Shown: piece after piece, positions 462 through 30,480 of the stretch
Position numbering within the stretch: position 1 is the first letter of the stretch
Layout of the letters: each line of letters begins with the position of its first letter
NCBI GenBank assembly: GCA_016193315.1
Contig: JACPSJ010000005.1
Coordinates: 68-64,067, forward strand
Reading direction: 5' to 3'
DNA length: 64,000 bases
From: Candidatus Kerfeldbacteria bacterium
Lineage (GTDB): Bacteria > Patescibacteriota > Patescibacteriia > SBBC01 > CAIJZX01
Position numbers and translations under genes: made by a program
The notes under the pieces: model-generated
What the model was told of the DNA's origin: nothing
Databases searched by the model: none
The model's input: the letters and a program-made list of their open reading frames with translations, nothing else

Positions 462-484
462 GATGCGAAGCAAAGCGGAGTTTC

Positions 485-572
485 GTCTAACGTTTGCGCG
501 TATGCGATGTTGCGCGGGTGTATACTATCGCGAAGCGGACACCCGCGCAATTCCGTATACGCGCTGTTATCG
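485..572 (-). repeat. attC-like site 1 (88 bp)
   Basis: + strand GTCTAAC-GTTTGCGCGTATGCG...inner 10-bp palindrome GCGCGGGTGT/ACACCCGCGC...CGTATACGCGCT-GTTATCG; on - strand ends in GTTAGAC (GTTRRRY). Confidence 0.7.
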
Positions 573-709
573 GATGTTTTGCTCGCAATCATAATAAATG
601 GGCCCTTTTGGATTCGTTTTTTATTGACATACAGCGCTTCATTTGATAACGTCGGTTTGCCTGAAAATAGTGCAGGCTTTGTACGTTCCCAATCGGGAGG
701 GCGCAGAGT

Positions 710-1252
710 ATGAATCTCCGGATGGTTTTTGGGATGTTGCTCGTCGTGTTGTATGGATGCACTCATGCAAAGGAGGTCAAGGAGATGAACGACGCGGTCG
801 TCACTACGTTGGCCCTCCGGACCGACAGTTCGGATATCATGAGAATGGGCCCTGATGCTTTTGCGCTTGATGTGAGAGCGAGGGAGTGGCGCGATGTGCA
901 TCTGAAGGGAAGCGAGTTCGCAGTACTGCCACTCCAGGAGAGTTTCTACCAGCCGCGTCGTACCGACAAGCCCTATGCTGGCTCCCGGCATTACCTTCTC
1001 TATCGCCTTCGGGCTGGCGAGACGATTCGGGGCGTCGTCGAACGATATCGTTCGCTCGCTGGCGACGGAGTTGATGGTGATGACGGCGTGTCCATCCTCG
1101 GTGAGGCAGAACGGCTTCATCATTTGCACCATGACCGGCGGGACGCGCAGGAGGGCGATTTCTGTCCTTTGATCTTGCCGCGTCTCACACACGACGTCTG
1201 CGCTGGCGTGGTTCACTGCCAGCTTCATGGAATGACCGTCGTCACATTCTAG
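710..1252 (+). CDS. cassette ORF: putative lipoprotein (opposite orientation to array)
   Basis: N-terminal signal MNLRMVFGMLLVVLYGC (lipobox-like), GGAGGG RBS 8 nt upstream; lies between attC sites 1 and 2. Confidence 0.45.
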   Translation: MNLRMVFGMLLVVLYGCTHAKEVKEMNDAVVTTLALRTDSSDIMRMGPDAFALDVRAREWRDVHLKGSEFAVLPLQESFYQPRRTDKPYAGSRHYLLYRLRAGETIRGVVERYRSLAGDGVDGDDGVSILGEAERLHHLHHDRRDAQEGDFCPLILPRLTHDVCAGVVHCQLHGMTVVTF

Positions 1253-1357
1253 CAGCATCGATTGCGACGATGTAGTTGTCCCCCGGGGTCAGAAATGGCC
1301 TCGGGGTTTCTTATTAAACTTCCAAAAGGGCTCCCAAATATTTGCGAGCAAAATTTC

Positions 1358-1509
1358 CGATAACGTTTGCGCGTATCTGTTGTTTGCTGGCTGTATGCTA
1401 TCGCGCCTGCCCGCCGAAGTAAAACGAAGGTGGGAAGCGGCACAGCCAGCAAATAACCGCGGAGGCTCACCCGGTAGGGGGAGCCGGAGCCAGATACGCG
1501 CTGTTAGCT
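1358..1509 (-). repeat. attC-like site 2 (152 bp)
   Basis: CGATAAC-GTTTGCGCGTATCTG...inner palindrome GCTGGCTGT/ACAGCCAGC...CAGATACGCGCT-GTTAGCT; 5' 7-mer complements 3' 7-mer of site 1. Confidence 0.7.
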
Positions 1510-1678
1510 GATGTATTCCTTTTCTTTTCTTCTCTGCCAAGAGAAGGCGGGGAAAAAATCTTTCAAATTTCCTTCAACTCTCTTTACGCCTTACTGTCAA
1601 CTTAAACCCTGAAAAAGAAAACGACCCGTCCTGTAAATCTGGGCGGGTCGTCTGCGAAAGTGCCAGGGAGCTCCCACG

Positions 1679-1951
1679 CTACTTCTGACGGTCTAAGCGC
1701 CCCACTGTAAGCATTGCCTTCTGGGTAATCTTGGGGCCCAAGTCATACCTAGCGACCATCTCCTTGAGCTCAGCAGCAACCCTCCGTGGAGCATTGTTGG
1801 AATAATCCCCGTATTCTATTTCTTCCAACATTCCAATGAGCTCGATGATGAAAACTTCTTCCTTGATCTTGGCGTCCATGTTGGCCACGTATCGCCGGAA
1901 ATGACGCTCTAGGTGGGACAACAGGACGTGATGTGCTGCCCGACCAGACAT
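1679..1951 (-). CDS. cassette ORF, hypothetical (90 aa), second gene of a two-gene cassette
   Basis: ORF between attC sites 2 and 3, 27 bp downstream of 1978-2343 ORF with no attC between them. Confidence 0.5.
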   Translation of the reverse strand: MSGRAAHHVLLSHLERHFRRYVANMDAKIKEEVFIIELIGMLEEIEYGDYSNNAPRRVAAELKEMVARYDLGPKITQKAMLTVGRLDRQK

Positions 1952-1977
1952 TGCTCCCCCATTTCTTCGGCACAGAG

Positions 1978-2343
1978 TTATTTCTTCTCCACGTTCCTCC
2001 TTGCTCGTATTTCCTGAAGAGCCATTCTCGCCTCTTTATGAAGCTCGGCCGTCAAAGCAAGAATTCGGGACAGACGCTCTTCATGTACATCGCCGGCCTG
2101 CCCAGACGGCGCCTTGTCAACTTGCGCCTTGAGGATAGCCACGGCTCTTTTGACCGTGTATCGTTGTCGTTCACTGAGCTGGTCCGCGATAAGCCACCGA
2201 TAAAGGGTTTGTCTGCAGAACGTCCCAAACCCCGGGTATACGCGCAGGACGTTAGCAGCAAGCGTCATTGATCCATAGGCACTGACAGCTTCTTTCAGCT
2301 CGCTTTGTGCATCCTGATTCTCACCAGCAGGTTCGGACTTCAT
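1978..2343 (-). CDS. cassette ORF, hypothetical (121 aa), first gene of a two-gene cassette
   Basis: ORF co-oriented with array; no recognisable family. Confidence 0.5.
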   Translation of the reverse strand: MKSEPAGENQDAQSELKEAVSAYGSMTLAANVLRVYPGFGTFCRQTLYRWLIADQLSERQRYTVKRAVAILKAQVDKAPSGQAGDVHEERLSRILALTAELHKEARMALQEIRARRNVEKK

Positions 2344-2550
2344 GACCCCTCCTTCACGAGTTCATGCCAAACTGAGTGGACGATCTAGAATTCCGTATGA
2401 GCATTGGGCAATATTTTCAAAAAGCAGTTTTGTTTGATCGTGTATCTAAACAAAGTATTGGACATGTGTCAATCCTGTCAGGCAAGAAGATAGAAATTTG
2501 AAAGATTTTTACCCGCTCCGGCGATAGCCGGAAAAGAAAAGGAATATGTC

Positions 2551-2642
2551 AGCTAACGTTTGCGCGTAGGCGAAGTTTGACGGTGATATAATCGTACCAT
2601 CACCGGCAAACTTAGGCGATAGCCGCCTACGCGCTGTTGTGC
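2551..2642 (-). repeat. attC-like site 3 (92 bp; 3' core tandemly duplicated 2646-2652)
   Basis: AGCTAAC-GTTTGCGCGTAGGCG...inner palindrome CGGTGATA/TATCACCG...CGCCTACGCGCT-GTTGTGC then GTTTGAG. Confidence 0.7.
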
Positions 2643-2858
2643 GCTGTTTGAGTTCGAGTATGCAATAATCGCTGCCTCAGGCCTTGACTTTTTTCAAGCC
2701 ACATGCTATTATTGCCCGTTCTTTAAAATGTTTGAGAAAAGCGTTTTGTTCATCAACGTGGTGTACGAAATGCTTTTCTCAAAGCGGGAAAAGCGTGGAT
2801 TGTTGCCGGAATGGCAACGCCCTGTCTCGTCCGGGGAATTCTCGTAAGGAGAGTAGCC

Positions 2859-3185
2859 ATGGACTTCGTGATCCCGAACAAGCAGATGTTCATGCGGCAT
2901 TATGTCGAGTTGGTCGGCAAAGACTTCCTCGGTTGCGGTCGCATGCTTCACATCACGTTTCGCCAGAAGCCGTGTGCCCACAGCTTCCGCTTCGTGGCCC
3001 TGTTCCACGTCAAGGGTCTCAAAGCCAAGCAGGTTCGGGGCACCTTCTACTGGAGCTATTTCAACGAAACCGAACAGTACTTCGACGTACGAGTTAGTGA
3101 CGGTACGCACGAAGGAGAAGTCTTCTACCACGTGCTGAACGAGGAGATCCTGACGACCGATCCGAGAATCAAGGCCATTGCCTGA
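2859..3185 (+). CDS. cassette ORF, hypothetical (~108 aa), opposite orientation
   Basis: Protein-like composition (MDFVIPNKQMFMRHYVELVGKDF...); the overlapping - strand ORF 2709-3203 is R/G-rich antisense-like. Confidence 0.35.
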   Translation: MDFVIPNKQMFMRHYVELVGKDFLGCGRMLHITFRQKPCAHSFRFVALFHVKGLKAKQVRGTFYWSYFNETEQYFDVRVSDGTHEGEVFYHVLNEEILTTDPRIKAIA

Positions 3186-3271
3186 AGTCCGCACCTTCCC
3201 CAATATGGGGCCGAGGGTTTCTGAAAGGAGCCCTCGGTTTTCGTTTATTTAAAGACTCGAACTCAAATGGC

Positions 3272-3334
3272 GCACAACGTTTCGCGCGTCATACGCGGCG
3301 GAGCGAAGCGGAGTTGCGTATACGCGCTGTTGTA
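3272..3334 (-). repeat. attC-like site 4 (63 bp)
   Basis: GCACAAC-GTTTCGCGCGTCATACGCG...GCGTATACGCGCT-GTTGTAC; 5' 7-mer complements 3' 7-mer of site 3. Confidence 0.65.
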
Positions 3335-3386
3335 CGATGATTTGCCTCCCGACCAATAAAGATAAGCGCGGTTTCACCGTTGCTAA

Positions 3387-3878
3387 TTACTCGCCAAGTA
3401 GTTCCTCAGCAACTTCAAGGGCTATGTCATATTGAGATTTACCAGCCTTCTTCCGCTCGTATTCGTATGCTTCTGACAGAACTTCGTCTTGTGCCTTGTC
3501 TATCAACACAGCTTCTTTCGAGACTTCGGGCGTAACCTGTGTTCTAAGCTCAGCTAATTTGTAAAACTTATTGTAAAGTTTTCTAATGACATCTGAGCCT
3601 TCGTAAGAAAAGCTTTCAACGTCAGAAGTGTTTCCATCACCAAGTAATAAACCATCAATAAATCCGTACCCACGAGAGGTAAGGTATACCGAGTGTCCGT
3701 TGAGAGTCCCTTCAATTCGGGTATCCGGCCCATATGAACTTGCTTCAAGCTCTATATCACCCGTGACATTGAGTTCAGATTTCAATTTCTCGTATAATTG
3801 CAGTTTTTCACGTAACTCTGACAGCTCATGCTGTGATGGCGTCATTATTTCTTCTGGTGATGGTCGATCTTTTTCCAT
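3387..3878 (-). CDS. cassette ORF, hypothetical (163 aa), AT-rich
   Basis: ORF between attC sites 4 and 5; compositionally AT-rich relative to host. Confidence 0.55.
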   Translation of the reverse strand: MEKDRPSPEEIMTPSQHELSELREKLQLYEKLKSELNVTGDIELEASSYGPDTRIEGTLNGHSVYLTSRGYGFIDGLLLGDGNTSDVESFSYEGSDVIRKLYNKFYKLAELRTQVTPEVSKEAVLIDKAQDEVLSEAYEYERKKAGKSQYDIALEVAEELLGE

Positions 3879-3945
3879 TGAGATATAGATAGTGTTCTAG
3901 TCTAGAGAAACCGCGCTTATCTTACAACGAGGGAGGCAAATTTTC

Positions 3946-4039
3946 GTACAACGTTTCGGGCTAGCCGAAGTTTGGCTGTGGTACACTTGCGCACCAGCGC
4001 CCACCACAGCCAAATTTGGGTGAGCGAGCGCCGCTTTCA
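3946..4039 (-). repeat. attC-like site 5 (divergent variant)
   Basis: GTACAAC-GTTTCGGGCTAGCCG, inner 13-bp palindrome AAGTTTGGCTGTGG/CCACAGCCAAATTT, degenerate far end (GCTTTCA instead of GTTNNNN) overlapping the stop codon of the 4037-4624 ORF. Confidence 0.5.
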
Positions 4040-4624
4040 AATGATATTCCAAAGTCTGGTTGTCGGGTCGAGTTTATATTTTTGTACGTTGATGTGAACA
4101 GGTTTTCCTAAGAATGTAAAACCATATCTCACATCTAATATTATTCCATTGTCCGTAAGCTCTTTTTCTAAGTCGATTTCATTATCCTTTAAGGATTCTT
4201 TTGTGTTGAAAGGGTAAACACGGGAATCTCTTGCGGCCATGTACATTGCTACCTTGGAAAGGTTTTTGAGAATAATAGTTCTTTCTTTAAGTACCACAAT
4301 GAAAGTAATGGTTAAATCTTCGAAAGCATTATCGGTAGTGTTCATGTAGTGAATTTCGGTCGTGGGATTACCTTTCATAACACGAATTAACAAGGCTGGC
4401 TTCTTGCTAGCAACATAAGCCTTGTTAGTATGCCAAAAGCTAGCTATTACAAATGAAGCGGAAATAAATGCAGCAATTAATCCCCAAAGAGAAATCCAGT
4501 GGCCGATTTTTTCACTGGCTGTAATATTCCCTAAATGAGATTGCAGCCAAATATAATACGACAACCAGACACCCAGAAGAAGGAGAGAAATTATTATTGT
4601 TGATAATACATACTTTGTCTTCAT
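4037..4624 (-). CDS. cassette ORF, N-terminally membrane-anchored hypothetical protein (195 aa), AT-rich
   Basis: N-terminal TM helices (LSTIIISLLLLGVWLSYYIWL, WGLIAAFISASFVIASFW); second gene of two-gene cassette. Confidence 0.55.
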   Translation of the reverse strand: MKTKYVLSTIIISLLLLGVWLSYYIWLQSHLGNITASEKIGHWISLWGLIAAFISASFVIASFWHTNKAYVASKKPALLIRVMKGNPTTEIHYMNTTDNAFEDLTITFIVVLKERTIILKNLSKVAMYMAARDSRVYPFNTKESLKDNEIDLEKELTDNGIILDVRYGFTFLGKPVHINVQKYKLDPTTRLWNII

Positions 4625-4666
4625 GGCGCTCGCGAACCGGCTAGCCCGTGTTAGGCGGAGTAAATT

Positions 4667-4873
4667 TTAGTCGGGTCTACTTAAATCTTCTAAGTATTTT
4701 TCAGCATTCTTCTGGTTGTTGAATGTTTGTACGGTATAACCTATTCCATCTCGGTCAATTTGGTTACGTTTTCGTTGAGTTTTGTATACCACAAAAGAGT
4801 CTTTGCTGACTTTTCTAACGTTAAACCAATAACCCTCTTTTTCTATATATTTCGATGATATTTCGGTAACCAT
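4667..4873 (-). CDS. cassette ORF, hypothetical (68 aa), AT-rich
   Basis: ORF co-oriented, 42 bp upstream of 4037-4624 with no attC between. Confidence 0.45.
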   Translation of the reverse strand: MVTEISSKYIEKEGYWFNVRKVSKDSFVVYKTQRKRNQIDRDGIGYTVQTFNNQKNAEKYLEDLSRPD

Positions 4874-4898
4874 AATAGGAATGACTAAAATTTATTTC

Positions 4899-4983
4899 GC
4901 CTAACGTTTGCGCGTCATACGCCCGTCATCCGAAGCTTTAGCGTAGGATGATGGCGTATACGCGCTGATATATGATGTTGGCA
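4899..4983 (-). repeat. attC-like site 6 (first attC next to attI side)
   Basis: GCCTAAC-GTTTGCGCGTCATACGCC...GGCGTATACGCGCT then GATATATGAT-GTTGGCA; on - strand ends with canonical GTTAGGC. Confidence 0.65.
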
Positions 4984-5522: not shown

Positions 5523-6371
5523 GTGGCGAGAAAGGCCACCAATTTTATTATGACGTATATTCAATCACCGCTTGATCGGACCGAAACCGAGCTTCGGATC
5601 CGCAATTACAGCCCTCGAACTCGGCAGAGCTATGTGCACTGTCTGCGCGCATTCTTTTCGTTCGTCGGAGCGGACGTTGAGCGCTCGAACGAGGAACGCG
5701 TTCGGCAGTTCCTGCTTTCTTTGGAACAGCGCGGCGCTTCACCTCAGACGCGGAATATTCATTTGAGTGCCATCAAGTTTTACTATCGGTGTGTTGTCCG
5801 TTCCGGTGCGCTGATCGCTGTCCCGGCCGCTAAGAAATCGGCCGCCTTGCCAGCGGTTCTTTCCCGCGATGAGGTCCGCCGGATGCTGGACGTGACCGTC
5901 AACGAAAAACATCGCCTGCTGCTAGCGCTGGCATACGCCGCGGGACTTCGGGTGAGTGAGGTGGTGGCCTTGCGCGTCGGAGATATCGATCTGCCGGAAC
6001 TCACCGTGCACATCAAACGGGCAAAAGGACAGAAAGACCGGATCAGCATCATGCCGGAGACCTTGCGCGAAGAACTCTCGCGTCTCATGGCGGGAAAGGG
6101 GGGCGATGCGCCGGTGTTTGCTAGCGCGCGGGGCGGAGTGCTCACGACGCGTACCGCACAGAAAATCTTTGAGCACGCGCTTGCTAAAACCGGCATCAGA
6201 AAACCGGCCACCTTCCACAGCCTGCGCCACAGCTTTGCCACCCACCTGCTGGAAAACGGAACGGACGTGCGCTACGTGCAGGAACTGCTCGGGCACCAAA
6301 ACATCAGAACAACCCAGAGATACACCCGGGTCACAAATCCGATGCTCAAACACATCAAGAGCCCGCTGTAA
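5523..6371 (+). CDS. IntI-like tyrosine recombinase lacking the IntI-specific additional domain (282 aa)
   Basis: N-term RIRNYSPRTRQSYVHCLRAFFSFVG and KGQKDRISIMPETLREELSRL, C-term GIRKPATFHSLRHSFATHLLENGTDVRYVQELLGHQNIRTTQRYT (R-H-R-Y catalytic residues) closely resemble IntI1 blocks; ~40 aa shorter than IntI between patch-II lysine and box HxLRH. Confidence 0.8.
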   Translation: MARKATNFIMTYIQSPLDRTETELRIRNYSPRTRQSYVHCLRAFFSFVGADVERSNEERVRQFLLSLEQRGASPQTRNIHLSAIKFYYRCVVRSGALIAVPAAKKSAALPAVLSRDEVRRMLDVTVNEKHRLLLALAYAAGLRVSEVVALRVGDIDLPELTVHIKRAKGQKDRISIMPETLREELSRLMAGKGGDAPVFASARGGVLTTRTAQKIFEHALAKTGIRKPATFHSLRHSFATHLLENGTDVRYVQELLGHQNIRTTQRYTRVTNPMLKHIKSPL

Positions 6372-6631: not shown

Positions 6632-6721
6632 ATCCCGCGCATGGCGGAGGGTGGAGGATTCGAACCTCCGAGAAGCTTGCGCCCCTACTGGTTTTCGAAA
6701 CCAGCGCATTCGACCACTCTG
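6632..6721 (-). tRNA. tRNA-Ser (anticodon CGA), class II with long variable arm, CCA encoded
   Basis: Acceptor GGAGGGU/ACCCUCC, D-stem GCA/UGC, anticodon loop UUCGAAA, T-arm GGAGGUUCGAAUCCUCC, discriminator G + CCA. Confidence 0.85.
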
Positions 6722-6840
6722 CCAACCCTCCGCCATGTGCGGTGACAACCACTCGGCCACTCCTCCGTCAGGGATTTTCCGATACCCGACAGGCTGGCCG
6801 ATTGTAGCCCGTTTGCTATCATACATCAAGTCGGAACACC

Positions 6841-10302: not shown

Positions 10303-11943
10303 ATGATCCCCGCTCCCCCTCCACCGAACGCGTCTACTGCTGCCCCGCCCGCGACCAGCAGAGTTGATGGCTTTATCCGTCGCCACGAGTTTTGGTCTTG
10401 GCTGATTGTATTCCTGGCGATTGGCATCTACGGTACGCTCCTGTCGGTCCCAAAGAATATCCGGGAAATCGTCACCTTCGACTGGTTCTATGATCTTGCT
10501 TTCCACATCCTCGTTTGGCCGTCGGACGTCGTCTACGCTTTCGTCAACCAATGGGTCGACTGGCAGGAGAGGGTTGACGCTGGGCTACAAGTTGGGTTGG
10601 CCGCCCTGCTGTATCTCTACCGTCACCTAGAGCGGCGACTAGTGACAAAGCCAACGCCAGTCGTCCGTCGTCAACGGCTATGGCTGGCTGCCGGATCACT
10701 GTCAACTGTCTTGCTGCTAGCCATTATCTGGATCACCACGCCGTTCCCTAAAGATTTTTTGAAGATCTTCACCACTCCTATCCCAGCCCGTGTGATCAGT
10801 GAGACCCCAACGCCGCTCCCTACCCTTTACGTGGCCACCCGCCAAGGAGTATTCCGCGCCTCTGATGATGAAGCGGAGAAACGATATGGCACGCTCCAGC
10901 CATTCAGCCGGACCACGGACGTGATCAAGATCAATACCACCCAATCGGCAGTCTATCTCTACGCCAAACAGGGGGTCCAACGATTCGATCATGGTGGTCG
11001 GCTGAAGAGCGAGTGGAAGCGGACATCATCACCGACCTACCGCCTGCCGACCGCGGAGGAAACCCGAAACGGGGCGGCGGAATACGATGAATTGATGGCC
11101 GGCGTCTACGACCGCGGGAAACTTTACATCGCCGCCAACCGGTCGCTCATTATCCTGGACGAGCAGCTCCGCGAACTCGGTCACCTCAGCCCGCTCCAAA
11201 AGAATGAGCTTAACCAGTACAAAGCGATTGATGACGTTCTAGTCCATGACCAAACGGCTTTCCTGGTCGACGACATCGCTTATCCGCTGTTCGTTTTCTC
11301 GGTCGACATCAGCAACCCTCGGCAGCCACAGCTGCTGCACACCATCGGCGTCGGCGGCGTCTACGCTACCATCAGCAACCAATGGCTCGATCGAGCCAAC
11401 GAGGATTGGTGTTTCCAGCAGGAGACGAGCAGTGGCTACACCGGCAATTTCACTTCCGTCGCCTGCGTCCCGAAATCCCTCTACCGATCGCCTGGCTCGA
11501 CGAACCCCGACGGCTACGGACCAAACGACCCGGCCATCCGAACTATTGAACTCGGAGAAAGTAACCACGAAATCGAGCCCGAACTACGCACCGGCAAAGG
11601 ATTCACTATCTTGAAAGACCTGAACTGGACCGACGACTGGATGTTTATTGAACAAGCCAAAAGCTATGATGACCAAATTGTCGGTCTTGGTTCTGACTAT
11701 TCTGTCCAGGCGCAACAGTCCATTGGTACCAACCTCAGCAGCGGGTCAATAGTTTTCTACCGCTATCGTGATCACGTTTTCCTCTATGCCCTTGACACGC
11801 TCAATGTCCTCCGCGACAATGGCGAGGTGCTGGCCGGTGAACACTCGCAGACTATCCCCCAGGTTGAGGTTGATCGGACCGATGGATACCAAGGGAAGAT
11901 GAAGGTGCCGGCCTGGATAACATTCGCCGCTGATCCACGTTAG
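10303..11943 (+). CDS. large membrane-anchored hypothetical protein (546 aa)
   Basis: N-terminal TM helices then long extracytoplasmic domain. Confidence 0.6.
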   Translation: MIPAPPPPNASTAAPPATSRVDGFIRRHEFWSWLIVFLAIGIYGTLLSVPKNIREIVTFDWFYDLAFHILVWPSDVVYAFVNQWVDWQERVDAGLQVGLAALLYLYRHLERRLVTKPTPVVRRQRLWLAAGSLSTVLLLAIIWITTPFPKDFLKIFTTPIPARVISETPTPLPTLYVATRQGVFRASDDEAEKRYGTLQPFSRTTDVIKINTTQSAVYLYAKQGVQRFDHGGRLKSEWKRTSSPTYRLPTAEETRNGAAEYDELMAGVYDRGKLYIAANRSLIILDEQLRELGHLSPLQKNELNQYKAIDDVLVHDQTAFLVDDIAYPLFVFSVDISNPRQPQLLHTIGVGGVYATISNQWLDRANEDWCFQQETSSGYTGNFTSVACVPKSLYRSPGSTNPDGYGPNDPAIRTIELGESNHEIEPELRTGKGFTILKDLNWTDDWMFIEQAKSYDDQIVGLGSDYSVQAQQSIGTNLSSGSIVFYRYRDHVFLYALDTLNVLRDNGEVLAGEHSQTIPQVEVDRTDGYQGKMKVPAWITFAADPR

Positions 11944-11947
11944 GAAA

Positions 11948-12187
11948 ATGCCAAAAACTCGTCATTCGCTCGGTTTCAAAATCAAAGTCCCGCCGGATTT
12001 TGCTAAGGCGCTACGCACCCGACCGCTGACGCTACGAGCGTTTCAATCCATGCCGCCTTCCCACCAGCGCCGCTACGTCGAGTACATCTACGAAGCCAAG
12101 CTAGAAAAAACGCGCCGGCAGCGTATTGCCAAGTCGCTGTCGATGATAGTCGCTGGGGAACGGAAACGCGTGACTGGTTGGTCTTAG
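11948..12187 (+). CDS. YdeI/OmpD-associated (bacteriocin-protection-like) small protein
   Basis: RAFQSMPPSHQRRYVEYIYEAKLEKTRRQRIAKSLSMI matches family signature. Confidence 0.55.
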   Translation: MPKTRHSLGFKIKVPPDFAKALRTRPLTLRAFQSMPPSHQRRYVEYIYEAKLEKTRRQRIAKSLSMIVAGERKRVTGWS

Positions 12188-12254: not shown

Positions 12255-13289
12255 CTACGGTTGACGACGCTGCCTGGCCTGTAGCTGGCGATACTCGTCA
12301 AGTGTTTTCTGCTCGATCCGCAGTCGCCCGACTGGGACGCGGCGTTCCGATCGGCGGCCATTGATATCAACCAATTCCCACCGCCGCGGCAAGGTGGCCG
12401 TGAACACGCCCATCATGCCATGCAGCGCGGCCAGATCAACGGCTGCTCCTTTCCGGGCGGCGTGGACGAGGGTCCGAATCCGCCGCAGGTACCAGCGGGG
12501 GCAGAATATTGTGCCCTGCCGATTGAGGCACACACCGTTGATGGTCAGTGGGCCTTTGCGGATATCAAGGTTCTTGGCCTTGCGGTCGCTGACGGTAAAA
12601 CCGGCGTCACGAATCTTCCGTCTGATGACCTGCCGTTTCTTGGTGCCAATCGACCGCTCGCGCGAGGAGAACGTCAGGTCATCAAGATAGCGACTGTACG
12701 TCAACCCATAGCGCTGGCACAGTTCCCCGAGTGGCTGATCCAGTGTTATCGCCACATATAGGTTGAAGAGATCGGGCGAAGCCGGGCCACCTTGGACCAA
12801 CCCGCCGCGACGTCTTTGCCCGATCGGCAACTCGAGCTGGTACGGCTTGTTCGGATTCGGGCCGAAACAGTAGCCGAGCAAGAAATCGAGTACCGCTCCA
12901 TCCTGGACGGTCAACTCCGGACAGTGCTGGCAGATGATACCCGCCAACAGACCGGGGTCGACATTGCAGTAAGCGTGGCGGAGGTCGTAGAGCAAGAAGT
13001 AGCGGTTCGGTCGGTATCTGGCCGGTCGGCCGCGGTTATCGATATAGAGGTGTCGCCGGACATTCACCACCGGCGAACCGGCCGGCCGCGCGCCGACTGC
13101 ATGCGGCATCGGCACGTTGAGGCCCCGGAGAAATCGGACCAAGCGATGGTGCAACAGCCGCATGGCCGGATTCGGCGCGCCGAGCAACCGCACCTTGGTC
13201 GTGCCGCCGAGCGGGTTGACATCCCGATAGCGGAAAGGCTGCCAGGCCGGTTTGCCGGGCAAGCCGGTGGTAAAGCTTTCAAGGATCAT
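12255..13289 (-). CDS. retron-type reverse transcriptase
   Basis: NVRRH (NAxxH-like), FLLYDLRHAYCNV, LVQGGPASPDLFNLY, YSRYLDDLTFS, PLTINGVCL (VTG-like); GGAGGAG RBS before MILESF start. Confidence 0.8.
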   Translation of the reverse strand: MILESFTTGLPGKPAWQPFRYRDVNPLGGTTKVRLLGAPNPAMRLLHHRLVRFLRGLNVPMPHAVGARPAGSPVVNVRRHLYIDNRGRPARYRPNRYFLLYDLRHAYCNVDPGLLAGIICQHCPELTVQDGAVLDFLLGYCFGPNPNKPYQLELPIGQRRRGGLVQGGPASPDLFNLYVAITLDQPLGELCQRYGLTYSRYLDDLTFSSRERSIGTKKRQVIRRKIRDAGFTVSDRKAKNLDIRKGPLTINGVCLNRQGTIFCPRWYLRRIRTLVHAARKGAAVDLAALHGMMGVFTATLPRRWELVDINGRRSERRVPVGRLRIEQKTLDEYRQLQARQRRQP

Positions 13290-13345
13290 TACTCCTCCAC
13301 TGATCGGGCGAATATGGAACACTCGCCCGTTTTAGGTTTTTCGAG

Positions 13346-14530
13346 TCACCCCGAAAGGTGATCGAGACTCACGACAATGATCGTGAGCAGGAGGATTTCA
13401 ACGCCCCGATTATCGAGGCGTCCACACCGTATCACAAAACTACGAAAAAGCAAGAAAAGACCGGGCCCATCGGGTCCGGCTATGCGCAGCGGCGTGGCCG
13501 CAGAATGATCAGCGAGATCCAGGAAGTTGCGCGGGCGTAACGCGCGTTCGCTGAGGTCTGGGTCTTCCGCGCCGGCCGCGGGCGTCCGCGGTCCGAGAGA
13601 AAGAGAACCCCGAACCTGAGAAGGTTCTCCCCGACTTAGGGAGTTCCGTACCACGACAAAGATCGTGGAATCTTTCTTACTTCCTCGACGCTACTTGCCA
13701 CTCCGACCTTGCAAGTTTTCCTGGATCTGGTGGCCGCTCCTTGGAAGGAACGGTGCTGAGACCTGTGACCCCGAAGGATCACTCGGGCCTCCGAACCTAC
13801 ACTACCAAGCCTTAGGAAAAAAAGAAAGGCCAGACCCGATGGATCTGGCTATGCAAAGCGGTTGAGCCGCGGAACGTGCAGCGGAAGTGCGGAGACGGTG
13901 TTGCTGTTCGGGCTGGGGCTCGCTGAGGTTCGCTCCACCGCGTGGAGAACGGACGGGTGCGAACCGTGCTGGGTTGTCCCCGAAGGGACTCCCGACCGAC
14001 GACAATGATCGTCGGTTTCGTGTTGCTCCTCGTTGAGTCAAAGAGCCCGAACGTTTTCCGGCCCCGCACCTGGCTTTTAGCCTTCCGGCCTCGGGACGTA
14101 ATACGTCCCTTGTCCGGACCGGAGGCAGGCTGAAGCCATGATACCATGAATGTTTACAGACGAGCAAAAAGAAACCCCCGTGGCACGACGAGGGTTATTG
14201 TCAGCCCTTGCAGGCGTAAGGTTCAGCGGAGGTCCAGGGCCGTTGCGAGTTATGTGGTGGTTGGCGCGATGCTGCGCTCCGTTCGCGGCGCGCGTGCCGC
14301 TGAGTCGCTGCGACATCGATCGCTCATCCAGCGATAACCGTGCGGAGAGACGATGAAGTCGAAGTCCGACTTGGGAAGGATGACTTCCGTTCGGAAGCCT
14401 CCGCCTGACGACGAAGATCGTCAGGGTAGTACTACCTCAGTGGATCTGCCCGAACTGGAACGCCGACCATGGACCGTGTCCTCCGAAACGCCGCGGGAGC
14501 GAGCCCCGTAGCCGGAGCGAGCCGAGTACG
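13346..14530. repeat. non-coding array of degenerate structured repeats with four covarying hairpins xxACGAC(A/G)A(A/T)GATCGTxx
   Basis: Hairpins at 13368-13387, 13651-13668, 13994-14015, 14404-14425 with identical inner ACGA/TCGT and compensatory outer pairs; recurring CCCCGAA(A/G)GG and CGCTGAGG motifs; no credible ORF. Confidence 0.45.
13440..13479 (-). terminator. candidate rho-independent terminator on - strand
   Basis: CCGGGCCC/GGGTCCGG hairpin followed (on - strand) by TCTTTTCTTGCTTTTTCG. Confidence 0.4.
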
Positions 14531-14538
14531 CTTGCGGA

Positions 14539-15165
14539 GTGAAGCCAAGCACGCTGACCATATTCTACCCCGATGATTGGCCGACCCACAAGGGCTTGTG
14601 CTATCCTCAAGCCATGCGCCTCGGCTTCATCCTCATTGCCACTGCGATTGTCATTGTTTTTGTTTCCTGGCTAACCGCCAAGCGCGATACGAGCGAACCG
14701 ACGCTGAATACCAATGCGCCAGCGACCGTAGTCGTCACCAGCTCAGCTTTCACCAATAACGGCAACGTCCCGGCCAAATACACTTGCGATGGCCAAAACA
14801 CCAGCCCACCGCTGCAAATCAGCGGCCAACCGGCCAACGCCAAAGGCCTGGCCCTGATTATGGACGATCCAGACGCACCGGGAAGAACGTACACTCACTG
14901 GCTGGTTTGGAACATCCCGCCGCAAACCTCGACCGTTAGTGAAGGTCAATCCCCCAGCGGCGCAACCGGACAGAATTCCGCCGGCCAGTCTATTTACACC
15001 GGGCCATGCCCCCCAAGTGGCACGCATCGTTACTATTTCCGTGTTTACGCTCTCGATGCTGAGCTGACTCTGGCCGCCGGATCTTCGAAGTCCGACGTGG
15101 TCAACGCCATGAGCGGGCATGTTCTCACCCAGGGCGAATTGATTGGGCGGTATCGTCGGCAGTAA
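14539..15165 (+). CDS. YbhB/YbcL family (PEBP-like) protein with N-terminal signal/TM
   Basis: DDPDAPGRTYTHWLVWNIP and GPCPPSGTHRYYFRVYALD motifs. Confidence 0.75.
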   Translation: MKPSTLTIFYPDDWPTHKGLCYPQAMRLGFILIATAIVIVFVSWLTAKRDTSEPTLNTNAPATVVVTSSAFTNNGNVPAKYTCDGQNTSPPLQISGQPANAKGLALIMDDPDAPGRTYTHWLVWNIPPQTSTVSEGQSPSGATGQNSAGQSIYTGPCPPSGTHRYYFRVYALDAELTLAAGSSKSDVVNAMSGHVLTQGELIGRYRRQ

Positions 15166-29523: not shown

Positions 29524-29964
29524 TTGTTCCTTAGCCAACAATTTCCATCACCTAACAGCGCTTTTCCGCTTATGAAGCAATTGAAACAACTGGCCAAGCT
29601 GGCCCTGTTTGGCAGCTTGATCGGCACCTGGTTTTTTCCTATCGCCTCGCACGCTCAGGGAGCGGCCACAACCTTTAGTATTGAATCGGTCGGGGAACTG
29701 ATCGGGCTCGGCGAAGCTGATCTCAGAGAAGTAGTCATTAACGTTATTCGTTTCGTCCTCGGGTTCATGACCTTAGTGGCGGTGGTTTTCATTATCTACG
29801 GCGGGTTTGTCTGGCTAACCGCCGGCGGCAACGAGGATCGAATCGAGAAAGCAAAGAAAATAATTTCCGCCGCCGTCATTGGCTTGATCGTAATCCTGCT
29901 GGCCTGGGCGATCGTCATCTTCGTCGCTCGGACCACGGCCGACGTCACCGGCAACACACTCTAG
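29524..29964 (+). CDS. TrbC/VirB2-like pilin
   Basis: FIIYGGFVWLTAGGNEDRIEKAKKIISAAVIGLIVILLAWAIVIFVARTTADVT. Confidence 0.6.
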   Translation: MFLSQQFPSPNSAFPLMKQLKQLAKLALFGSLIGTWFFPIASHAQGAATTFSIESVGELIGLGEADLREVVINVIRFVLGFMTLVAVVFIIYGGFVWLTAGGNEDRIEKAKKIISAAVIGLIVILLAWAIVIFVARTTADVTGNTL

Positions 29965-30012
29965 CCTCATTTTTGACTATTCTGATCCGATCATCCGAAA
30001 GGGGGTGATACC

Positions 30013-30384
30013 ATGAAGAAATTTGCCAAATACGCGTTGATCGCCGGCTCACTGGGCACGGCTTTGCTGCCGATGGTTGCCCACGGTCAAGCTACAACTT
30101 TCAGTGTCGAATCACTTGGTGAACAGATCGGCTTGGGCAGCGCTGACCTGAAAGAGACGGTCATCAACATCCTCCAACTCGTCCTTGGCTTGCTGGCCCT
30201 GATTGCCGTCATCATGATCATCATTGGTGGCTTTACTTGGTTGACCGCCGGTGGAAATGAAGAAAAGGTTGATAAGGCCAAGAAGATTATCTCGGCCGCC
30301 GTCATCGGCCTGATCATCGTCTTGCTGGCCTGGGCGATTGTCATCTTCGTCGCTCGGACCACGGCTGACGTCACCCAGACGTAG
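30013..30384 (+). CDS. TrbC/VirB2-like pilin (tandem paralog)
   Basis: C-terminal 40 aa nearly identical to 29524-29964 product. Confidence 0.6.
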   Translation: MKKFAKYALIAGSLGTALLPMVAHGQATTFSVESLGEQIGLGSADLKETVINILQLVLGLLALIAVIMIIIGGFTWLTAGGNEEKVDKAKKIISAAVIGLIIVLLAWAIVIFVARTTADVTQT

Positions 30385-30480
30385 GAGGAAACTTCCTGAT
30401 TGCGTAAACTCACCCGCCCCGACGCTTGCGAGCGTCGGGGCGGGGTTGTATTCGCAAACAAATGCGGTACGATAAACGGC

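Follow-up and report, generated by a model that had tools for sequence, protein, structure and literature searches.

Probable tandem genes for structured RNAs beside a retron-clade reverse transcriptase in a Candidatus Kerfeldbacteria contig

Results

A repeated RNA unit upstream of a reverse transcriptase gene

We analysed a stretch of 64,000 nucleotides (nt) from contig JACPSJ010000005.1 of a Candidatus Kerfeldbacteria bacterium (assembly GCA_016193315.1; the whole stretch is called the window below), concentrating on the intergenic region directly upstream of a gene for a reverse transcriptase (RT) on the minus strand. This region spans 13293-14613, about 1.3 kb, because the PBP-family gene on its far side most likely begins at ATG 14614 (MRLGFILIATAIV…), the start also given by the gene call on the identical contig; the longest open reading frame (ORF) of that gene begins at GTG 14539, and preferring the ATG frees 14539-14613 for a promoter region of the first RNA unit described here. 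An initial reading made from the letters alone (the sequence-only reading) had given the feature 1.1 kb, which is too short, and had called it free of ORFs, which it effectively is: the DNA is 59% GC, the ORFs of up to 121 amino acids (aa) within it are attributable to chance, none matches Pfam, and the gene caller places a single 52-aa ORF there, also without a Pfam match.

The region contains three complete units of about 320-400 nt (A, B and C), each with its own terminator, and a truncated fourth (D) that forms the 5' leader of the RT (Table 1). Very probably, judging from sequence and predicted structure, these are tandem paralogous genes for a structured non-coding RNA (ncRNA) cognate to the adjacent RT, itself a member of the retron clade by sequence comparison. 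All features of the array read on the minus strand, which is the strand of the RT, as indicated by minus-strand terminators and a minus-strand promoter-like site; UUCG-type loops also lie on this strand.

Hairpin-to-hairpin spacings of 282, 346 and 409 nt bear out the degenerate repeats that the sequence-only reading had seen. It had listed four hairpins with an ACGA…TCGT inner stem, all of which are present, three of them where it placed them (13368-13387, 13651-13668 and 14404-14425) and the third at 13995-14016 instead of 13994-14015; their outer pairs (CTC/GAG, CC/GG, ACCG/CGGT and CCTG/CAGG) differ and compensate exactly as claimed. The pattern ACGATCWTYGTCGT, which is their minus-strand core, occurs four times in the 64 kb, always in the array and in one orientation, against 0.09 expected, and 0 of 100 shuffles reach four. 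A second hairpin does lie 3-7 nt from each main hairpin, with the CCGAA(A/G)G loop that had been ascribed to every one of them in only two of the four; the other two loops read GTTC and GACTTA on the plus strand, and a third CCCCGAAGG, at 13766-13777, is part of another hairpin (P0 of unit C). The stems of the second hairpins compensate in their turn (GUCCC/GGGAC, CUCCC/GGGAG, CUUCC/GGAAG and UCACC/GGUGA).

These two hairpins, HP1 and HP2 below, account for just the 5' portion of a longer conserved unit, which further comprises a long hairpin (P3), a pair of complementary ends (a1/a2) and the CCUCAGCG...CCGCUG motifs. The size puzzle raised earlier, 1.1 kb against the roughly 200 nt of a retron RNA, is thereby resolved, since the region consists of three units of about 320-400 nt and a partial one. 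Two recurring motifs also find their place, GCAAAAAGAA as the complement of the terminator U-tracts and CGCTGAGG as the complement of the family-wide CCUCAGCG motif. The full units are only about 56% identical to one another, the P3 and loop sequences of A, B and C are mutually unrelated, and each unit has its own a1/a2 pair (GGUCCAUGGUCG/CGGCCCUGGACC, AGGUGCGGGG/CUCCGCACUU and AGAUCCAGGAA/UUCCUGGAUCU). The HP1 apex, ACGAUC-WUY-GUCGU, is identical in all four window copies and takes other sequences in relatives, a pattern that suggests co-adaptation with the cognate RT.

A promoter-like site precedes each full unit, that of unit C being weak. The TTGTGA-17-GATAAT site noticed earlier was recovered by a promoter scan (13437-13409, minus strand). 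The minus-strand terminator that had also been noticed forms in the fold at 13443-13480 with one stem mismatch, and was hence missed by the terminator scan, which reported two further ones at 13849-13829 and 14196-14173; the array thus has three terminators, not one. Unit D has no a1, a2, CAGCG motif or CCGCUG motif and continues into the RT start codon.

Table 1. Positions of the features of the array and the RT gene within the window.
Feature	Position	Strand	Details
Unit A, full ncRNA	14161..14591	-	R1 match
Unit A promoter-like site	14562-14591	-	TTGTGG-18-TAGAAT
Unit A a1	14464-14475	-	11/12 pairs with a2
Unit A HP1	14404-14425	-	
Unit A HP2	14378-14402	-	
Unit A P3	14303-14372	-	
Unit A CAGCGG	14297-14302	-	
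Unit A a2	14231-14242	-	
Unit A CCGCUGA	14223-14229	-	
Unit A terminator	14161-14196	-	
Unit B, full ncRNA	13815..14160	-	R1 match
Unit B promoter-like site	14138-14167	-	TTGCTC-N18-TATCAT, weak; overlaps tail of unit A terminator
Unit B P0 hairpin	14085-14117	-	
Unit B a1	14062-14071	-	
Unit B HP1	13995-14016	-	
Unit B HP2	13971-13993	-	
Unit B P3	13927-13965	-	
Unit B CAGCGA	13920-13925	-	
Unit B a2	13885-13894	-	
Unit B CCGCUG	13879-13884	-	
Unit B terminator	13815-13849	-	
Unit C, full ncRNA	13443..13814	-	R1 match; folding; a1/a2 complementarity
Unit C P0 hairpin	13762-13784	-	
Unit C a1	13718-13728	-	11/11 complementary to a2
Unit C HP1	13651-13668	-	
Unit C HP2	13623-13647	-	
Unit C P3	13554-13617	-	
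Unit C CAGCGA	13548-13553	-	
Unit C a2	13515-13525	-	
Unit C UCGCUGA	13509-13515	-	
Unit C terminator	13443-13480	-	
Unit D, truncated, RT 5' leader	13305..13437	-	R1 match 13286-13400, 38.3 bits, E=7e-8
Unit D promoter-like site	13409-13437	-	TTGTGA-17-GATAAT
Unit D HP1	13367-13388	-	
Unit D HP2	13341-13365	-	
Unit D short hairpin	13305-13329	-	
Retron-clade RT gene	12255..13292	-	344 aa; ATG 13292; ribosome-binding site GGAGGAG 13294-13300; YLDD; NVRRH; TING

The units belong to an RNA family that accompanies related RTs

Loci of RT homologues were taken from genome and metagenome collections by two profile-based scans, which gave roughly 390 loci (177 and 212), a single-sequence scan having given none. 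Near these homologues, a scan for an HP1-like hairpin with a second hairpin gave 19 RT-sense upstream matches versus 3 antisense. A covariance model, R1, built from 18 copies and covering the 5' half of the unit with HP1 alone annotated, gives, at E<0.01, 45 matches across 93 non-redundant loci of the RT family, all on the RT-sense strand, and none at E≤1 in 55 loci around other kinds of RT (292 kb). Within the window it finds only the four array copies, and units A, B and C score 58.4-58.8 bits, placing them among the top six of 71 matches. The locus and its roughly 45 related copies define an uncatalogued ncRNA family of a retron-clade RT lineage in bacteria of the candidate phyla radiation (CPR). 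An Rfam covariance-model search, proposed with the sequence-only reading, matched no retron or other family to the array: at the gathering score the window gave a transfer RNA (tRNA) only, 13000-14900 gave only chance-level matches at E≤10, and 20 loci of the RT family gave tRNA, tmRNA and RNase P only.

Most family members have a single copy, most commonly just upstream of the RT, and in the majority of relatives 10-25 nt separate the end of the RNA from the start codon of the RT; the two are presumably co-transcribed there. Arrays recur in relatives whose RTs are 38-48% identical to that of the window: one (L001, RT 48% identical) has three units with a terminator each; three (L002, L006 and L103) have two each, the first closed by a terminator and the second abutting the RT; and one (L003) has a copy on each side of the RT. 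In a further subclade (L134, L117, L019, L114, L127, L029, L113 and L115) the ncRNA follows about 100 nt after the RT stop codon, under a sigma-70-like promoter of its own (in L134, for example, TTGACA…TACAAT); the transcript of this subclade starts with CUUCAG, the hexamer found within its internal CUUCAGCG motif.

Two observations on these loci stand apart. A called 339-aa gene without a Pfam match, upstream of the closest RT homologue at 3560-4579 of L083 (about 1560-2580 of L001), overlaps two R1 matches and their terminators, and is probably a spurious call over ncRNA units. Several RT/ncRNA loci lie beside genes for RNase P RNA, tmRNA or tRNAs (L087 1666-2058; L090 3903-4256; L024 2056-2386; L114 1346-2289; L127 1495-1566), which may reflect integration near RNA genes or the clustering of RNA genes in small genomes.

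Covariation supports a common architecture

From 5' to 3', a unit consists of, often, P0; then a1, a linker, HP1, HP2, P3, CAGCG(G/A/U), a loop, a2, (C/U/A)CGCUG(A), and a terminator or the RT ribosome-binding site; the corresponding conserved motifs of the window units are CCUCAGCG(G/A) and (C/U)CGCUG(A). A whole-unit MAFFT alignment misaligned the hairpins and was left out of the structure analysis. The linker between a1 and HP1 measures 20-50 nt and ends in a conserved (Y)UGAGG and a purine-rich stretch. HP1 has 9 bp and a 4-nt loop, with near-invariant A-U and C/U-G closing pairs; all nine pairs change on both sides among the copies, and 97% of cells are paired. HP2 extends to about 10 bp, and in a fixed-register test on an alignment that had not been fitted to it, six of its seven pairs are double-changed; for the structure as a whole, this test gives 84% paired, versus 63% in shuffles and 42-50% when the register is slid. 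The covariation that the sequence-only reading took as the mark of a functional RNA structure extends over 45 copies in other genomes.

P3 is highly variable and 33-256 nt long, its 5' arm, (A/G)GGUY…, standing at a fixed offset and its 3' arm, …RACCU, abutting CAGCG. The variants of its closing helix compensate (GGUUCGC/GCGAACC, AAGGUCAG/CUGACCUU, AAGGCCA/UGGCCUU, GGGUUCGAUU/GAUCGAACCU and others). A loop of 20-60 nt separates CAGCG from a2. The a1/a2 helix, of 9-14 bp in 33 units, has a new sequence in each locus and a constant position, always abutting the CGCUG motif, and in 25 of the 33 units it is matched or bettered by no more than 5 of 200 shuffles.

The conserved motifs could pair in more than one way. 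A CAGCG(N):(N)CGCUG duplex of 5-7 bp would form a pseudoknot with a1/a2; its sixth pair is G-C in 13 units, G-U in 5, A-U in 3, U-A in 3 and unpaired in 9 (24 of 33 paired). No other pair varies, the core of this UCAGCGG:CCGCUGA helix being invariant, so that covariation can neither prove nor disprove the helix, which we treat as a candidate. The CUGAGG before HP1 can instead pair with CCUCAG, and one subclade has UUGAAG with CUUCAG, a compensatory change. This second helix would occupy the canonical retron a1/a2 position, and is incompatible with the CAGCG:CGCUG helix as well as with the final pairs of P3. The CCUCAGCG(G/A) motif can thus pair with (Y)UGAGG or with (C/U)CGCUG(A), not both, and each helix shows some compensatory variation in the family; the alternative may amount to a conformational switch between CUGAGG:CCUCAG and UCAGCGG:CCGCUGA. 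In the window, CCUCAGCG(G/A) lies at 13920-13933, 13548-13569 and 14297-14308, and the motifs before HP1 at 14022-14035, 13676-13690 and 14430-14442. Two further ideas were dropped. A terminal stem extended by pairing CCGCUGA with UCAGC upstream of a1 was inconsistent between units by eye. DRT2-like template jumping, suggested by direct repeats in unit B (CGAGGAGCAACAC, CGAACAGCAACAC) and L003 (TGGCTCTAC), would need a direct repeat shared by the a1-HP1 linker and the loop ahead of a2; a repeat longer than in shuffles occurs in only 3 of 33 units, and the idea was dropped as a general feature.

The RT belongs to the retron clade and has no conserved partner gene

The RT matches Pfam RVT_1, and its YLDD active site is kept across the family. 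Motif 4 reads QGGPASP, the retron/group II type; RTs of diversity-generating retroelements (DGRs) have a different motif 4. A profile built from 22 family members and searched against PDB matches the retron Ec86 RT at E=6e-31 over nearly its full length, Ec83 at 7e-30 and other retron RTs at 1e-21 to 1e-24, as against 1e-10 for group II, 4e-7 for Drt2 and 5e-4 for Drt3a. The top 25 PADLOC matches are all retron RT models, and the best NCBIfam matches are likewise retron RTs. Variants of the two retron hallmarks, NAXXH in region X (H most conserved) and VTG in region Y (G most conserved) (PMC7736814), stand at the right places in the family, as N-V-x-R-H (H81 invariant, N77 in at least 90%) and I-N-G (G253 invariant). 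Family members have about 300-345 aa and no extra domain. There are 148 detectable homologues, the nearest non-identical one 47% identical, and where they carry labels these name CPR groups (Parcubacteria, Paceibacterota, Saccharibacteria, Berkelbacteria and others). The ClpB encoded in the window has 100% identity to a protein from a Candidatus Kerfeldbacteria metagenome-assembled genome.

Retrons are normally tripartite, with an effector besides the RT and the ncRNA. When ORFs within ±2.5-3 kb were clustered across 105 loci of the RT family, the next-largest cluster after the RT itself occurred in only 6, so that the lineage has neither a linked effector nor accessory proteins of the kind known from UG27 systems (see below). 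IMG/VR viral contigs hold no member of the RT family, and blastn of the array against phage genomes gave no match.

Comparison with known systems

Retrons are the closest parallel. Besides the RT clade and an adjacent ncRNA on the same strand (classification in PMC7736814), the likeness extends to the RNA itself, in which the a1/a2 ends enclose two short hairpins in the position of msr and then a long variable hairpin in the position of msd; in place of NAXXH and VTG the RT has variants of these motifs. Unlike retrons, the family has the P0 hairpin and the CCUCAGCGG motif, no Rfam match, several independently terminated copies beside one RT, a subclade with the RNA downstream of the RT, and no conserved effector gene.

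Arrays of RNAs served by one RT have been described for UG27, a class 2 UG/Abi RT with YSDD from prophages of Bacteroidota and Bacillota, in which variable arrays of structurally conserved, sequence-diverse ncRNAs template short cDNA hairpins and two accessory proteins (sORF and bORF) take part; its units measure about 150 nt and carry AUCN7UANAG and UUYA motifs (bioRxiv 10.64898/2026.09.22.753630). The present locus is like it in having a tandem array of structure-conserved, sequence-divergent ncRNAs beside one RT, with a copy number that varies among relatives. It differs in its retron-clade RT with YLDD (RT membership being judged indirectly), in the absence of accessory proteins and of members in viral contigs, and in units of 320-400 nt with their own terminators; the UG27 unit pattern, ATCNNNNNNNTANAG, is absent from the array and occurs twice elsewhere in the window, with 2.9 expected. 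RT-served arrays as such thus have a precedent, though in another class of RT, one that depends on accessory proteins.

Three further systems bear comparison. DRT2 (UG2) resembles the locus in that its RT stands alone, has a structured ncRNA upstream and lacks a separate effector gene; it is set apart by weak RT similarity, a single ncRNA and direct repeats, of the kind that would support template jumping, that are not general in our family. Engineered retron arrays, or 'multitrons' (PMC10370050), also place several retron ncRNAs side by side with one RT; these are synthetic genome-editing constructs, to which the array would be a natural counterpart. UG38 consists of class 2 UG/Abi RTs from Parcubacteria and is described as a small, infrequent group (PMC9226505); the present RT family is large and retron-like. 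In our literature search we came upon no account of a retron-like ncRNA from CPR bacteria, nor of a natural retron ncRNA array.

Other features of the window

Convergent with the RT, 10303-12187 encodes a 546-aa ORF without a Pfam match and a 79-aa ORF with an OmdA domain, neither of which is conserved beside RT homologues. About 6 kb from the RT locus, a tyrosine-recombinase-like ORF (5523-6371, plus strand) adjoins tRNA-Ser(cga) (6642-6731, minus strand), and may mark the boundary of an integrated element. Two interleaved intergenic repeat families occupy 474-4983, with copies 0.9-1.8 kb apart: four copies of a 59-nt element with the core AACGTTTGCGCGTA (at 474, 1347, 2540 and 3935) and four of a 38-nt element with the core GTATACGCGCTGTTA (at 545, 1482, 3308 and 4946), both of which look like repeated regulatory or intergenic elements. 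An imperfect direct duplication of 285 nt, with copies 71% identical and a spacing of 426, occupies 29665-30375; after it, at 30397-30460, comes an inverted repeat of 30 nt.

Discussion

The reading that best accounts for these results is a new retron-like family in which this locus carries a natural array of several ncRNAs. Of the three options that the sequence-only reading had left side by side, it is the first, several paralogous retron-type ncRNAs, that the covariation in other genomes and the adjacent retron-clade RT support. If it holds, the RT would recognise the HP1/HP2 apex of each RNA, and the a1/a2 helix, or perhaps the CUGAGG:CCUCAG helix that directly flanks HP1-HP2-P3, would set up priming. 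Initiating near the junction of whichever helix is used, the RT would copy P3 and neighbouring sequence, and each unit would give a distinct small cDNA, so that three different templates would share one RT. The copy in the leader, unit D, may allow the RT to bind its own mRNA. As to biological output, phage defence is our default guess, by analogy with retrons.

Several observations weigh against this reading. The RT falls below every curated retron-type cut-off (68 bits with NCBIfam retron_St85_RT, for which the cut-off is 235), and its best PADLOC model is 'RT_outgroup', with matches that span only residues ~160-295. The RNA departs from the retron plan in the 20-50-nt a1-HP1 linker with (Y)UGAGG, in the segment between P3 and a2 and in the 3' CCGCUGA tail, and no conserved branching G follows a1 across the compared units. 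The RT has no effector gene conserved beside it, and the promoters assigned to units A, B and C match the consensus weakly; they were read by eye, and the promoter scan did not report them.

Some of these points would suit an account that keeps the array and gives it a non-retron mechanism, one that yields no 2'-5' branched multicopy single-stranded DNA; in one version the UCAGCGG:CCGCUGA duplex by P3 would serve as primer-template junction after 3' processing. The missing branching G and effector count in its favour, structure-conserved, sequence-diverse units have a precedent in the UG27 arrays (bioRxiv 10.64898/2026.09.22.753630), and directly 3' of P3 stands the conserved CAGCG(N):(N)CGCUG duplex, whose sixth pair shows some compensation. 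We nevertheless judge this account unlikely, given an RT whose similarity to retron RTs far exceeds that to class 2 UG RTs, the absence of UG27 accessory proteins from the 105 loci and of UG27 motifs from the array, the retron layout of a1/a2, two short hairpins and a long one, and the fact that in most loci the RNA runs on past CCGCUGA into a terminator or the RT ORF.

The RNAs might also not be templates at all, and act as RT-binding regulatory or decoy small RNAs, or as a cis leader or attenuator that controls RT expression. In a subclade of the family, however, the RNA lies downstream of the RT with its own sigma-70-like promoter, and there it cannot be a leader; the catalytic YLDD is kept across the family; and a variable long hairpin flanked by a1/a2 is what a template looks like in retrons. 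Against these stand the partial copy (HP1 and HP2) in the RT 5' untranslated region near the ribosome-binding site, the terminators after each unit upstream of the RT, and the capacity of CCUCAGCGG to pair with either CUGAGG or CCGCUGA but not with both, an arrangement that would fit a switch. On balance a role of this kind seems to us distinctly improbable.

Decay offers another way to explain the array, with one functional copy and the remaining units as degenerating duplicates of an ancestral single retron ncRNA. Low identity among the units, the clear truncation of the copy nearest the RT and the single copy of most relatives could be taken in this sense. The three full units, however, keep every helix by compensation, along with a terminator and the conserved motifs, their R1 scores are equally high, and arrays with a terminator per unit recur in relatives with RTs only 38-48% identical; the evidence thus speaks against the decayed repeat array that had been among the earlier options, and we hold such an origin to be very unlikely.

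That the region is a protein-coding gene damaged by frameshifts or decay, or else a DGR with its template repeat (TR) and variable repeat (VR), has next to no chance of being correct: chance ORFs of up to 121 aa exist and most RTs reported from CPR bacteria are those of DGRs (PMC8632793), yet no such ORF matches Pfam, conservation across loci lies in RNA helices and not in codons, the 64 kb hold no near-identical repeat of at least 30 nt involving the locus (and so no TR/VR pair), motif 4 of the RT is QGGPASP, and no target or Avd gene is a conserved neighbour.

Beyond the retron-like family itself, we tentatively entertain, at somewhat less than even confidence, a fuller picture of a natural multi-template retron: a widespread, effector-less RT lineage of Patescibacteria with an expandable array of independently transcribed msr/msd-like RNAs, in which fixed RT-binding hairpins are joined to diversifying template hairpins and a single RT would generate a repertoire of cDNAs. 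Its RNAs may toggle between CUGAGG:CCUCAG and UCAGCGG:CCGCUGA pairing, and it would represent a second independent origin, after UG27, of the design of an RT with an ncRNA array.

Retrons serve as in-cell DNA factories and are under study as defence systems; to our knowledge, every natural retron described so far has a single ncRNA for its one RT, almost always together with an effector. Several members of the present family have two to four diverged ncRNA genes per RT and no linked effector, and they reside in CPR hosts, whose genomes are tiny and most of whose known RTs belong to DGRs. The system is compact enough to be tested readily in a heterologous host: the RT has about 300 aa, and the RNAs measure about 320-400 nt in the window and 250-400 nt across the family. 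If its units are templates, it would provide a natural precedent for engineered multi-ncRNA retron arrays, and a second RT-served ncRNA array beside that of UG27.

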